Shown in pieces: positions 9,336 to 13,233 of a DNA stretch of 64,000 nt. The stretch is from Candidatus Heimdallarchaeota archaeon (GTDB lineage Archaea; Asgardarchaeota; Heimdallarchaeia; Heimdallarchaeales; Heimdallarchaeaceae). The notes below the pieces were generated by a model. The model was not told where the DNA came from. It did no database searches and saw nothing but the letters and a program-made list of their open reading frames with translations. A program made the translations under genes and the position numbers. Each line of letters opens with the position of its first letter. Within the stretch, counting starts at the first letter, position 1. The stretch spans positions 32,001-96,000 of the forward strand of contig JABCTC010000005.1 of the NCBI GenBank assembly GCA_018238545.1. The letters are read 5' to 3'.

Positions 9336-9459
9336 CGGACCTTAGCTCAGTGGCTTAGAGCTCTCGGCTGTAGTCAGGAGACACCCTTGTGAACAATGAT
9401 CAAGGCGTCAGTCGGTAGTAACCGAGCGGTCCCGTGTTCAAATCACGGAGGTCCGACCA
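9336..9459 (+). tRNA. tRNA-Tyr(GTA) with 47-nt intron (9374-9420) at 37/38, CCA encoded
   Basis: Acceptor CGGACCT/AGGTCCG (C1-G72, A73, CCA); D-stem GCTC/GAGC; anticodon stem CTCGG/CCGAG with GTA at 9370-9372; T-arm CCGTG-TTCAAAT-CACGG; relaxed BHB with helix CUGU/GUAG and bulges AG|U and UA|A. Confidence 0.93.
9374..9420 (+). ncRNA. tRNA intron with K-loop; candidate cis-acting H/ACA-like guide
   Basis: Stem ACCCUUG-U-GA[ACAAU]GA-U-CAAGG(C)GU gives tandem sheared G.A pairs, U.U and G-C. The flanking GAC and CAGUCGG are complementary to the bases around U35. Confidence 0.6.
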
Positions 9460-9468
9460 CTTTATTTT

Positions 9469-10227
9469 TTATTTTGTTTTCTTACCTATTGCTGTAAATA
9501 CGGGTATAAAGATCATCCTTCTATTCTGCTTAATCAGCTGTTGCTCTTTTTCCATAATTTGTTTAAACTCTGTTTCTGTAATCAGATTCGCCTCTAACAC
9601 TCTTTTCCATTCTTCCTCTATGTTATTAATTAAAGATTCTTTGTTCCAGGTTTGAGCTATAACAGAGATCTCAGTTTCTAGCCCTGCGGATTCAAAATAG
9701 GAGAGTAATTTTCTTCCAGCTAAAGGATCAGCACCTTCGTCTCTTAGATATTCAGTATGTTTTTTACCAAGGTTCATTTCAGGATATTCAACCCACCCTC
9801 CATAATCAGGTTCAGCTAAAGCTGCAACATATCCTTGTTTTTTACATACTCTGTAAATTTCATTCATTGCTTTAGTCGGATTCTTTAACCACAATAAGAG
9901 ATATTGAAAAAGCACAATATCGAATTTATTATCTTTCAAAGGAAGGTTTTCAACAGCCTCCACAAGAAATTCTACGTCTTCAACTCTCTGCTTCGCTACT
10001 TCAATCATTTTTTCATCTATATCGATAGCTGTTATCTTAGCAGATGTTCGAGATCTTAGTTCTCTAGTTATTGTTCCCATGCCACAACCAATTTCTAAGA
10101 TGTTTTTTGCTTTGGTTAAATCTATCTTTCTGTAGATTTGGTTGCGAAAAAAAAGGGTCCAAGAAGCTTGACGTTCAAACTGTTCTACTATTTCTGGACC
10201 CCAATTAACTCTCGGTTTTTCATTCAT
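9469..10227 (-). CDS. Class I SAM-dependent methyltransferase
   Basis: ILEIGCGMG motif I, AIDID, FDIVLFQYLLLWL. Start set at MNEKP (10227) because the longer ORF-track start overlaps the radical SAM gene. Confidence 0.88.
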   Translation of the reverse strand: MNEKPRVNWGPEIVEQFERQASWTLFFRNQIYRKIDLTKAKNILEIGCGMGTITRELRSRTSAKITAIDIDEKMIEVAKQRVEDVEFLVEAVENLPLKDNKFDIVLFQYLLLWLKNPTKAMNEIYRVCKKQGYVAALAEPDYGGWVEYPEMNLGKKHTEYLRDEGADPLAGRKLLSYFESAGLETEISVIAQTWNKESLINNIEEEWKRVLEANLITETEFKQIMEKEQQLIKQNRRMIFIPVFTAIGKKTK

Positions 10228-10249
10228 TTGAGACACACATTTGACAATA

Positions 10250-11557
10250 TTATGAGAAGGATTCTCTACAAACAGTAGTTGGAGCACTATAATTAAGAGG
10301 ACATCCTCCTCCACAGATTTCCACTTCAGGACAATCAGTGCACTCATCAGGTAGATATTTCATTTTCCTTAAACTCTTAGCAAGCTTGTGGTTCCATATT
10401 TTCTTCCATTTTGTGTTCAAGATATGGCCTAGTGGTTCAAAATAACTTTGACATGGAAGAACCATACCATCAGGTTCTATTGCCATGGCAATATGAGCTG
10501 CTGTGCATTGCTTTAATCCTAACCCTTTTTCAATTGGATTAAAATCGCAGTATCTTGTAGGACTGTACCAGAGGAAACCCATGTCTTTTTCTTCTGCTTT
10601 GTTCATTATCCGACTAATAACATCATCCAATGCTTCGACAGAGAGAGTGAAAGCTTCATCTTTTCCGCCTCCTGATTTGATGATACCATTTGCAGCAAAA
10701 TGGTCTATACCTAGAGAATCGAGGAAATCTATTGTTTTCTCAATATCTTTTATATTGTAAGGAGTTAAGGTTGTATTTGTTAAGATGTACACTGGAGTAG
10801 GAACGATGTTTTTTATTCCTTGAACAGTTTCTTTCCAAGCTCCTTTGAAACCGCAAAGTTCATCATGAAGCTTCTCATCGTGACTCTCGATTGTGATTTG
10901 GAAATGATCTATTCCAGCAGTAACTAGTTTGTCTACAAATTTCTTATCCTTAAACATCCTACCATTCGAGATTATACCAGTAATAATTCCCAAATCTTCA
11001 GCATAAGCTACTAACTCTGGTAAATCCTTTCTTAATGTAGGTTCCCCACCAGTAAAAGTTACATGAGGAATACCAATTTCCCACAGATTGTCTAGTACTT
11101 GTTTCCATTCGTCTGTAGTCAATTCAATGATTTCTCTCTTATGTTCGACATAACATTTAGTGCATTTATTATTGCATCTGTAGGTTAAGGCTAAATCCAT
11201 ACGTAAAGGAGCAGAGAAAGGAGTTTCTAGTAAAGAACTGATGTCTTGAGATAAGTGTTGCACAGGATCGATATCGGGTTTTGTTAAGAGATCCATTATT
11301 GATGTCTTGAAATCTACTAAGTCGTTCATCAGTTGAATCTCATCTACACGATATTTTCTTTTAACTTCGGATACAATTTCCTCATTGGTTTTCCCTTCAA
11401 TTATTCGAGAAGCAAAATCTGTTGCAGTTCTGTTTAAATGAAAAATTCTTGTAGCATTTACCAAGAGTAAACTATTACCCTTTTTCTCTTTCCTTAAATG
11501 CATTCTTGCAAAAGTATCTAAATTCCTTATATGGGACATTTTCTTTTCTCGCATCAT
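10250..11557 (-). CDS. PqqD/RRE-fused radical SAM protein with SPASM domain
   Basis: N-terminal RRE-like HLNRTATDF...GKTNEEIVSEVKRKYRVD; CNNKCTKC; TGGEP; SPASM C-x12-G-x4-C and CTDCPEVEICGGGC. ATG 11557 overlaps the upstream TGA (ATGA) and has a GGAGGTG SD. Confidence 0.92.
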   Translation of the reverse strand: MMREKKMSHIRNLDTFARMHLRKEKKGNSLLLVNATRIFHLNRTATDFASRIIEGKTNEEIVSEVKRKYRVDEIQLMNDLVDFKTSIMDLLTKPDIDPVQHLSQDISSLLETPFSAPLRMDLALTYRCNNKCTKCYVEHKREIIELTTDEWKQVLDNLWEIGIPHVTFTGGEPTLRKDLPELVAYAEDLGIITGIISNGRMFKDKKFVDKLVTAGIDHFQITIESHDEKLHDELCGFKGAWKETVQGIKNIVPTPVYILTNTTLTPYNIKDIEKTIDFLDSLGIDHFAANGIIKSGGGKDEAFTLSVEALDDVISRIMNKAEEKDMGFLWYSPTRYCDFNPIEKGLGLKQCTAAHIAMAIEPDGMVLPCQSYFEPLGHILNTKWKKIWNHKLAKSLRKMKYLPDECTDCPEVEICGGGCPLNYSAPTTVCRESFS

Positions 11558-13233
11558 CTTCCACCTCCGGCACAGGCACAGGCACAAGCACAGGCACAAG
11601 CACATCCTCCGCCACCACCACCACTTCGACCACTGCTTCTGGAAACAGGGGGACGAGTAGCTTTTTGTAAAGATTTTGTGAAGGTTTGTGGTTTTGCTAT
11701 GACTCCTGATTGGAGACTGCTAATTGGACCAACATGAGTTGATCCACTGTGGTGTTGAATCCTGAAGAATGATCTAGAAGCAGACCGTGTATATGAACGT
11801 CCTGTATAGAAATAGTAATTTCGGACATACCAATGTGGATAGTAGTAACCATCTCCTCGTCTTTCAAGACGTTCTTCATATCCTTCATCAACCATAATCC
11901 AAAGAAATGCATCTTTGAGTTCAGGAGTAGTTTTCTTCATCTCCTCCCATGATTTATCGATAATTTCCTCATAATGCTTCTTTGTTCTTCTAACGGAGTA
12001 ACCTTTCATCTTTTTCGAAACACCTTTAATACGTATTATGAGAGCTTTTTTCAATTCAGTTTGGTGAACTGGTTCTCGAGGGATAGCACCAGAACTAGCA
12101 CCTTTTTTCCATTTTATATCTTCCTTATTTCTTCGTCTAATACCCGCTATAATGCTTTGTTGATATTTAGGAAGCTGAGTAATTACTTGAGAACTAGCAA
12201 CCACTTGAAACCTTAAAACGGGTTTTGTGGTCTCAATCTCCAAATAACCTAATTTCATCATTTCAAATAATATCAACGTTGCAACTTGAGCTAATGGTCT
12301 TTGTAATAGTATTGCAACTTGTGAGGGAGTTAAATCCTTCTTCACACCCCCACCTAGAGTTGTTACTATTGGTGGAAGGTATTCCTTGCTCTTTCTTCTT
12401 TTCCTCAATAAGTAAAATATTACAATCACGGCCACTATAGCAAAGAAAATAATTATGTCTCTGTTGTTATATAGGGTTAAACTCCAGAAAACACTATGTA
12501 CTTTCACATATTCCTCCGGAAGACCAACAGCTGACATGTATCCTTGGGAAGGAGAGCCAATTTTATTAAATTCAATATAAGGTCCATCTGAAGATGAAGC
12601 TACAGATGTTGCATCACTAGGTTCAGCATGTAAAACATTCCAATCTGAAGAAGTTTGTCTTACTTTTGTTTCATCAATGTCAGTCAAAATTTCTGGAAAA
12701 TAATATCTTACTCTTCTTTCAGTTGTGCCACTTGCAAAAGAACCATCATACCAAGTTTGGAGAAAAACTACGGATGCAAAACCCTCTACACTGTCAGGAT
12801 ATACCATTGCAGGATTGTGACAAAAGACTTCTAAAACACCAAATTCTCCAGGATCAATTTGACTAGCACCAAGCCAAATTTCAACACCGATTTCTATATA
12901 CTCGCTTTTTTTGATTTTTGAACTAGCTATCTCTAAACCGTTCAATTTCGCGGTAACAGAGGATAACTCATAGTGATCATTTGGAAACCCAACATCAATT
13001 ACATCTATTGAACTATAACCAGGAATACAATAGAATTCCATCTCATAATATATATCAATTGAACCATCTTCTAAAATGTGAATATCTGTATACATATAAG
13101 GAATTTCAAAACCATAAACAGCATCTAATGTTGTTAATCCGTCATCGAAATCACTCGCTAAACTAGCACCAGAAACGATAAAAATCGATATGAACAAAGA
13201 ACAACTCACAAATAATAATAACCTTGATCTCAA
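11554..13233 (-). CDS. DUF2207-like single-pass membrane protein with C-terminal G6-(CA)6-GGGR tail
   Basis: TTG start with GGGGAG SD; signal peptide; ectodomain (IHILEDGSIDIYYEMEF); TM plus RKRRK; LTPSQVAILL...MMKLGYLEI; Ser/Gly-rich linker; CACACACACACAGGGR. Confidence 0.8.
   Translation of the reverse strand: MRSRLLLFVSCSLFISIFIVSGASLASDFDDGLTTLDAVYGFEIPYMYTDIHILEDGSIDIYYEMEFYCIPGYSSIDVIDVGFPNDHYELSSVTAKLNGLEIASSKIKKSEYIEIGVEIWLGASQIDPGEFGVLEVFCHNPAMVYPDSVEGFASVVFLQTWYDGSFASGTTERRVRYYFPEILTDIDETKVRQTSSDWNVLHAEPSDATSVASSSDGPYIEFNKIGSPSQGYMSAVGLPEEYVKVHSVFWSLTLYNNRDIIIFFAIVAVIVIFYLLRKRRKSKEYLPPIVTTLGGGVKKDLTPSQVAILLQRPLAQVATLILFEMMKLGYLEIETTKPVLRFQVVASSQVITQLPKYQQSIIAGIRRRNKEDIKWKKGASSGAIPREPVHQTELKKALIIRIKGVSKKMKGYSVRRTKKHYEEIIDKSWEEMKKTTPELKDAFLWIMVDEGYEERLERRGDGYYYPHWYVRNYYFYTGRSYTRSASRSFFRIQHHSGSTHVGPISSLQSGVIAKPQTFTKSLQKATRPPVSRSSGRSGGGGGGCACACACACACAGGGR
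11569..11604 (-). repeat. (TGTGCY)6 hexamer repeat encoding (Cys-Ala)6
   Basis: TGT GCT TGT GCC TGT GCT TGT GCC TGT GCC TGT GCC; the Ala codons vary synonymously. Confidence 0.95.

Follow-up and report, generated by a model that had tools for sequence, protein, structure and literature searches.

A conserved H/ACA-like module in the tRNA-Tyr intron of Heimdallarchaeota and other archaea, with a probable role in guiding pseudouridine 35

The intron of a tRNA-Tyr(GUA) gene from Candidatus Heimdallarchaeota archaeon, a member of the Heimdallarchaeaceae, was found to contain a hairpin module that embraces the anticodon of its own transcript in the manner of an archaeal H/ACA guide RNA. The module is real, widespread and apparently undescribed, and it is likely that the intron guides formation of pseudouridine 35, by whatever route, as an atypical H/ACA-like guide that dispenses with the ACA box. 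A concrete, testable function would thereby be provided for a tRNA intron that ranks among the most widely retained, in a module that reaches the Asgard archaea, the group closest to the eukaryotes, in which pseudouridine 35 requires the intron.

The tRNA-Tyr gene and its intron

The window analysed is a stretch of 64,000 nucleotides from contig JABCTC010000005.1, and the features relevant to the present work, with the basis for each, are as follows:

9336..9459, plus strand: tRNA-Tyr(GUA) gene with encoded CCA and a single intron at position 37/38 (cloverleaf read from the sequence)
9374..9420, plus strand: 47-nt intron with the guide-like module (boundaries from the anticodon stem and from relatives)
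9371..9372, plus strand: U35-A36, unpaired at the foot of the upper stem, with U35 the presumed target (sequence)
9364..9370, plus strand: exon positions 28-34, which the 3' pocket strand pairs with (pairing with 9409-9415)
9373..9382, plus strand: 5' pocket hairpin, G37-U-C (9373-9375) with GAC (9380-9382) and an AGGA loop as tether (covariation)
9383..9408, plus strand: upper stem, 10 layers to the second sheared pair, with bulged C9406 (unfitted MAFFT alignment)
9390..9400, plus strand: K-loop with ACAAU loop, a putative L7Ae site (sequence conservation in relatives)
9409..9415, plus strand: 3' pocket strand CAGUCGG (position of the YRGY core in K-type introns)
9415..9421, plus strand: bulge-helix-bulge (BHB) splice strand, which excludes the pocket fold (sequence and energy evaluation)

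The 124-nt transcript has its anticodon at 9370-9372, followed by G37 at 9373, with C1-G72 as acceptor pair and the CCA encoded at 9457-9459. The exon boundaries are set by the anticodon stem (9363-9367/9422-9426). A BHB motif for the 37/38 intron is present, in which GUAG (9415-9418) pairs with 9368-9371 and the bulges are of 3 nt, one of them at 9419-9421; the second, intron-side helix is weak, making the motif one of the relaxed kind. Neither ARAGORN run without introns nor Rfam at gathering thresholds gave a match anywhere in the window, whereas ARAGORN with its intron option detects the gene and labels it tRNA-Asn(GTT). Since standard tools miss or mislabel the gene in this way, such genes may be misannotated in public records. 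Immediately downstream and convergent, the stretch at 9469-13233 (minus strand) encodes a membrane protein whose tail is a Cys-Ala repeat, together with a radical SAM/SPASM-like enzyme and a methyltransferase.

Fold of the intron on its own anticodon

The original prediction placed an H/ACA-type guide geometry around U35, and this is borne out: every base and pair that it named is present at its coordinate when checked base for base, and the K-loop, the 10-layer stem and the two pocket strands lie where they had been drawn. The upper stem comprises A9383-U9408, C9384-G9407, C9385-G9405, C9386-G9404, U9387-A9403, U9388-A9402 and G9389-C9401, with C9406 bulged, and is continued by the K-loop layers U9390.U9400, G9391.A9399 and A9392.G9398 up to the loop ACAAU (9393-9397). 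At its base the 3' pocket strand (9409-9415) forms seven pairs with 9364-9370, two of which are G.U, while the 5' pocket strand (9380-9382) forms three with 9373-9375 across a 4-nt closing loop. The intron flanks consequently pair on both sides of U35-A36, and that dinucleotide alone stays free.

Set beside a canonical H/ACA guide, the intron has the K-motif, in the form of tandem sheared G.A pairs that are conserved in 200 introns; the expected separation of pocket and distal G.A by about 10 layers (10 in this intron); and an unpaired U-N, U35-A36, flanked by 3 + 7 pairs. It differs in having no lower stem, the 5' end of the module being the target itself, and in having no ACA or ANA box 13-16 nt from the pocket (9423-9425 reads CGA), canonical guides carrying theirs at 14-16 nt. 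The original prediction carried both absences as a caveat, and both hold in this copy. They weigh less than they otherwise would because guides without either element work in vivo and in vitro (PMC11077068). The module does have what defines an atypical, ACA-less H/ACA-like guide, namely a K-motif hairpin with a 3' guide strand and without lower stem or ACA.

In single-sequence prediction for naked RNA, the pair probability of the 3' pocket is close to 0 and that of the upper stem is 0.37-0.95. ViennaRNA, which models neither K-turn nor protein, assigns -39.7 kcal/mol to the pocket fold, -35.3 to the BHB fold and -42.7 to an unrelated minimum; the protein-free pocket fold accordingly lies 3 kcal/mol above the predicted minimum, yet below the BHB fold. 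As the naked RNA is not predicted to adopt the pocket fold, the help of protein would presumably be needed. Single-sequence folding gave the module no support (z = -1.6, 0.0 and 0.4). An alternative register, in which GAC (9380-9382) pairs with GUC (9407-9409), was rejected, having pair probabilities <0.1 and misfitting the covariation described below.

Conservation and covariation

Comparison among Asgard relatives, proposed at the outset as a check, showed the pocket and K-motif to be conserved and the 5' pocket to covary. The U35-A36 register is identical in all 200 introns that carry the K-motif (K-type introns). Counted along the 3' strand, the distance to the distal G.A is 10 nt (151 introns) or 11 nt with a bulge (47) in 198 of the 198 counted with a parser that permitted only these two lengths, and the YRGY core of the pocket lies 8 or 9 nt past the 3' GA. 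The TGA of the K-loop is invariant in 40 aligned relatives. Conversely, pocket pairs 5-8 and the U.U layer are poorly conserved, the layer adjoining the sheared pairs being U.U in only 43 of the 200. Pairing of the 3' pocket is nearly universal at position 31 (199/200; pocket base 4), stands at 160 for position 30 and 158 for position 29, and then fades. Since the partners in the anticodon loop are themselves invariant, the evidence on the 3' side is one of conservation.

Evidence on the 5' side comes from 152 introns with a tether of 5-12 nt, in which the pocket partner was placed by optimising the upper stem alone. The base before the stem is a C facing G37 in 150 of these, and intron base 1 is Watson-Crick paired in 143 (A:U 93, U:A 27, C:G 12, G:C 11). 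Permutation gives 70 such pairs overall and 93 within groups, and none of 10,000 permutations reached 143; base 2 is paired in 87 introns, against expectations of 44 (overall) and 65 (within groups). Sliding the register by one or two bases reduces base-1 pairing to 14-50. Kinship was handled by clustering and within-group permutation in place of a tree-based count of independent changes: when introns were clustered at 70% identity over their remaining sequence, pairing persisted in 73 of 81 clusters, and five clusters contain a switch of pair type.

A MAFFT alignment of 40 Heimdallarchaeia sequences, which was not fitted to the structure, has 90% of cells paired and 76 double changes, compared with maxima of 48% and 26 for slid structures. 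Within it, four of the seven upper-stem pairs change on both sides (93.6% of cells paired) and the U9374-A9381 pair is compensated. The two measures in this test that count pairs or types stayed within their shuffles. Run on this alignment, RNAalifold found the four pairs at the core of the pocket (positions 31-34) and missed the upper stem and the 5' hairpin. Judged on these comparative data, chance is out of the question as the origin of the module's shape.

Distribution of the module

The combination of K-motif, 3' pocket and 5' pairs is reproduced in 10 of 20,000 dinucleotide shuffles of the intron under study; the feature having been chosen post hoc, comparison between genomes outweighs this single-intron result. 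tRNA-Tyr genes were gathered by patterns fixing exon bases only, from the relatives, class and phylum of the window's genome and from samples of two other phyla, with the strict-pattern search of the phylum matching 33 of 399 genomes. The module, with either a K-loop or a K-turn as its K-motif, is present in 85 of 103 unique Asgard introns (3.0 in shuffles), 46 of 50 from Nanoarchaeota (2.6) and 9 of 44 from Thermoproteota (0.5), counts that do not represent prevalence, many genomes having no pattern match and the Thermoproteota set being partly hand-picked. A scan of all GTDB species, using a pattern that fixed the 3' half only, returned K-type introns from Heimdallarchaeota, Promethearchaeota, Woesearchaeota, Pacearchaeota, Nanoarchaeota, Thermoprotei, Culexarchaeum, Geoarchaeota and Methanomethylicaceae, and the 5' half, absent from the pattern, fits in the matches nonetheless. 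In all, the module recurs in hundreds of archaea belonging to three superphyla, Asgard, DPANN and TACK. The genome's 13 further intron-containing tRNA calls all lack the geometry, and inspection by eye revealed no module in the tRNA-Tyr introns of the phylum (Thermoplasmatota side) to which a Methanomassiliicoccales-labelled genome belongs.

Several departures from the common pattern were noted. Asgard genes L030, L068 and L097 have a decayed module, a different intron or none, and so offer natural controls. Minimal K-type introns of Nanoarchaeota (L141, L142, L147, L170, L179, L197, L212 and others) have only AU or AA between G37 and the upper stem. In one Thermoproteota group (L309, L310 and kin) the 3' UGA of the K-turn has become UGU, with stem and pocket retained. 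A second tRNA-Tyr intron occurs in close relatives, at sites that vary between the D loop (L011, L012, L027) and the T loop (L014-L017, L019), while the 37/38 intron remains conserved. At G072:C52, L056 and L057 are a pair of tRNA-Tyr 5' halves in inverted arrangement, separated by 2.5 kb; L056 stops after a damaged pocket strand, without a 3' exon, and resembles an integration or duplication scar. Labels or bins are probably wrong for Methanosarcinales-titled records that turned up in the sample of the Nanoarchaeota phylum (G487, G482), and for one named Nanopelagicaceae bacterium that has a Promethearchaeota-like tRNA-Tyr; the suspect records for both cases are L205, L216 and L166.

Separately, the 49-nt intron of tRNA-Met(CAU) and the 46-nt intron of tRNA-Leu(UAA) in G000 (C106:12461-12585 and C102:64761-64891) both start with ATCTTG and have in common an A-run followed by AAGGGTTAGAA, possibly a site recognised in both by a modification guide or an enzyme.

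An ACA-type sister variant

Of the 57 introns that are not K-type, 42 have the same CAG-type pocket strand with an ACA 14 or 15 nt from the pocket start. Since the BHB strand reads ACAG anyway, it is relevant that the ACA is separate from that strand in 20 of the 42. Introns assigned to this ACA type are:

ACA-type introns: L071, L073, L088-L095, L107, L108, L111, L112, L282-L306, L336-L346; plain hairpin, pocket strand and pairing to exon 22-29 or the D loop, K-motif absent

By eye, the segment that separates the pocket from the ACA can be paired to exon 22-29 in Asgard members and to the D loop in those of Thermoproteota, the latter with matching changes (GCUUGGAA with UUCCAAGC in L282-L283; GCCUGGUA with UACCAGGC in L286-L289). 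Judged by this pairing, the ACA-type variant is the lower-stem-plus-ACA half of an H/ACA RNA, its predicted lower stem being supplied by the tRNA's own exon (the D arm). Both halves are apparently combined in a few K-type introns (L060, L096). ANA at 14-15 nt is not enriched among K-type introns. The 10-layer spacing of the K-motif and the 14-15-nt spacing of the ACA are independent hallmarks of the Cbf5 particle, and point to the same U35 in different lineages. In two Asgard genomes (L111, L112) this ACA, at 14 nt, straddles the 3' splice junction, so that the intron no longer carries it once excised.

Other Thermoproteota have short introns of ~13-20 nt without either module. Separate guides for U35 have been described in Sulfolobales and Aeropyrum (PMC2651775), and it is no more than a lead that the short-intron Thermoproteota may be the lineages with separate guides. 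A further conserved intron type in Thermoproteota (group G661 to G731), with CAG, a stem of C-run and G-run and an ACA in the loop, fits neither the K-type nor the ACA-type variant.

Competition between the pocket and the splice motif

The pocket fold had been predicted to exclude the anticodon stem and the BHB helix. This proved correct: pocket and BHB helix compete for exon bases 9368-9370, and by virtue of this common use the two folds are mutually exclusive. The intron strands of pocket and BHB overlap in 110 of the 200 K-type introns, in registers three bases apart, and are separate in the other 90, including the intron described here (overlap of ≤1 nt). Among introns with overlapping strands, 80 of 95 have C or U at base -4, which can pair with G30 in the pocket but breaks the BHB pair with U33. 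An A at this base would fit U33 in the BHB, and where the strands are separate A is found in 49 of 85. This bias indicates that the pocket fold is maintained at a cost to the splice motif.

Protein partners

The genome encodes Cbf5, with its GTLDP catalytic motif retained, Nop10, Gar1 and L7Ae, and Cbf5 is present in 196 of 201 Nanoarchaeota genomes. The suggestion that TruD/Pus7 might be missing or degenerate did not stand up, as the protein is full length (417 aa), with both the lysine of motif IIIa and the motif II KR pair in place; Pus7 is likewise intact across the family, which retains K and either KR or KK. With these motifs intact, the notion of the guide as a rescue for a broken Pus7 does not hold. 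This does not sink the guide reading: in Sulfolobus, albeit with an altered enzyme, Pus7 makes pseudouridine 13 and a guide makes pseudouridine 35 (PMC11077068). Pyrococcus Pus7, on the other hand, forms pseudouridine 35 unaided (PMC2651775). An intact Pus7, taken together with the unaided Pyrococcus enzyme, means that a guide is not obviously needed here.

Proposed mechanism

Our preferred reading, somewhat favoured on the arrangement of the sequence, is that the intron serves in cis as an ACA-less H/ACA-like guide on its own pre-tRNA. L7Ae would bind the K-loop and, via Nop10, seat Cbf5, accompanied by Gar1, at the stem base. The anticodon stem would be opened by the 3' pocket strand, the short tethered 5' hairpin would fix G37, and U35 would be converted to pseudouridine inside the same pre-tRNA molecule. 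The RNA would then refold to the anticodon stem and BHB, with splicing to follow.

The K-motif, the 10-layer stem and the unpaired U-N set how L7Ae, Nop10 and Cbf5 hold a target. Of 15 productive guide folds from Pyrococcus, 14 have a stem of 10 layers (PMC4652768). Guides lacking both ACA and lower stem are functional and depend on L7Ae and Gar1, and recombinant archaeal H/ACA proteins accept ACA-less guides (PMC11077068). Pairing on the 3' side is more important than that on the 5' side (PMC7075261). Against the proposed mechanism, substituting a K-loop for a K-turn in Haloferax led to loss of activity in vivo (PMC7075261). A genome-wide scan for other pocket targets returned 40 matches rich in wobble pairs, about what a pattern this short would be expected to yield.

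Action in cis is favoured by three features: a 5' duplex of only 2-3 pairs closed by a short loop; 38 introns in which the tether is ≤4 nt, leaving little or no room for a 5' duplex; and the junction-spanning ACA of the two Asgard genomes noted above.

Alternative explanations

The same guide could instead work in trans, the excised intron (linear or circular) or one pre-tRNA acting on another, unspliced pre-tRNA-Tyr, and we regard this as possible though rather doubtful. There is precedent in the box C/D guide of the tRNA-Trp intron, first proposed to act in cis and later reported to be trans-acting (PMC7994747), and 3'-side pairing alone can support modification (sR148, PMC11077068; PMC7075261). 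Covariation with the intron's own bases is equally expected from a trans guide, its target being the same transcript. However, such a guide would have a weak grip on a structured target, given a 5' duplex of 2-3 bp, or none in up to 38 introns, and a 3' duplex of just four pairs in several species, and an excised intron of the L111 or L112 type would be without its ACA.

It is improbable, in our estimation, that the module when bound by L7Ae merely holds the pre-tRNA in a non-spliceable state, whether to time splicing or to present the anticodon loop to Pus7 or another enzyme. The intact Pus7 motifs and the mutual exclusion of pocket and BHB folds are consistent with such a role, as is the intron-dependent formation of eukaryotic pseudouridine 35 by Pus7 (PMC2651775). 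Yet the pocket pairs U33, G34 and G37, which flank U35 in the motif read by Pus7. A holding function would also not account for the spacing fixed at 10 layers, for precisely two bases being left unpaired, or for the 14-15-nt ACA of the sister variant, three features that are rules of the H/ACA particle (PMC4652768).

Superficially, GUGA (9389-9392) and AUGAUCA (9396-9402) look like boxes D' and C', such that the K-loop might belong, as its C'/D' half, to a box C/D methylation guide like those in the introns of tRNA-Trp and tRNA-Met, a reading we consider very unlikely indeed. There is one K-motif only, with no second C/D pair and no Rfam match, and a U.U adjoins the sheared pairs in just 43 of 200 introns. 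The stretch upstream of the D'-like box is itself base-paired to the 3' strand of the intron, and the pairing shows compensatory changes, so that no antisense guide is left free; the fifth base upstream of that box would in any case target an intron base. Finally, that the module is a chance feature, or a by-product of the complementarity to positions 32-35 that any 37/38 intron must have for its BHB, is scarcely credible despite the overlap of the strands in 110 of 200 introns, since they are separate in 90, the geometry is absent from the 13 other intron-containing tRNA calls, tRNA-Tyr introns on the Thermoplasmatota side have no module by eye, and shuffles and slides fail to reproduce it.

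Comparison with known systems

The module lies outside the canonical H/ACA family, having neither lower stem nor ACA, and it is not a C/D guide. A search of the open literature, with most subscription papers outside its reach, returned no description of the module, and neither an H/ACA-type guide within a tRNA intron nor one acting on its own molecule.

The closest structural counterparts of the cis guide proposed here are sR109, sR136, sR148 and sR563 of Sulfolobus islandicus and sR203-sR210 of Pyrobaculum, which like the tRNA-Tyr module have a single K-motif hairpin with a 10-layer stem and guide strands at the stem base, without lower stem or ACA (PMC11077068, PMC4652768). Those, however, are free RNAs that act in trans, mostly on rRNA, whereas the tRNA-Tyr module sits inside its target on a short tether, with a 5' duplex of ≤3 pairs. 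The closest counterparts by target are Sso1, Sto1, Sac1, Mse2, Ape7 and sR115, which address the same U35, require unspliced pre-tRNA-Tyr, and like the module pair across the anticodon arm and the start of the intron (PMC2651775, PMC11077068). These are encoded by separate genes, have a lower stem and ACA, and occur where Pus7 is altered; here the intron itself would be the guide and the Pus7 motifs are intact.

The tRNA-Trp intron (sR50) and the tRNA-Met intron of Nanoarchaeum equitans are likewise intron-encoded modification guides (PMC7994747, PMC3491384), and that of euryarchaeal tRNA-Trp is, like the module, aimed at its own pre-tRNA (PMC7994747). They direct ribose methylation by Nop5-fibrillarin, carry two box pairs and are reported to be trans-acting, as opposed to the one K-motif and pseudouridylation-type pocket of the tRNA-Tyr module.

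In eukaryotic tRNA-Tyr, Pus7 forms pseudouridine at the same base, with the intron at the same position, before splicing (PMC2651775). There the modification is the work of a stand-alone enzyme. To our knowledge, the eukaryotic tRNA-Tyr intron is not known as a guide RNA. A broader view, which we put forward tentatively and at slightly less than even confidence, is that the pre-tRNA-Tyr of Asgard archaea, Nanoarchaeota and Thermoproteota may be the RNA of an H/ACA-type particle, guide and substrate in one molecule, built to two complementary half-designs (a K-motif without ACA, or an ACA and D-arm lower stem without K-motif), in which modification gates splicing. If true, this would represent an old reason to keep the tRNA-Tyr intron, and a possible forerunner of the intron-dependent pseudouridine 35 of eukaryotes.
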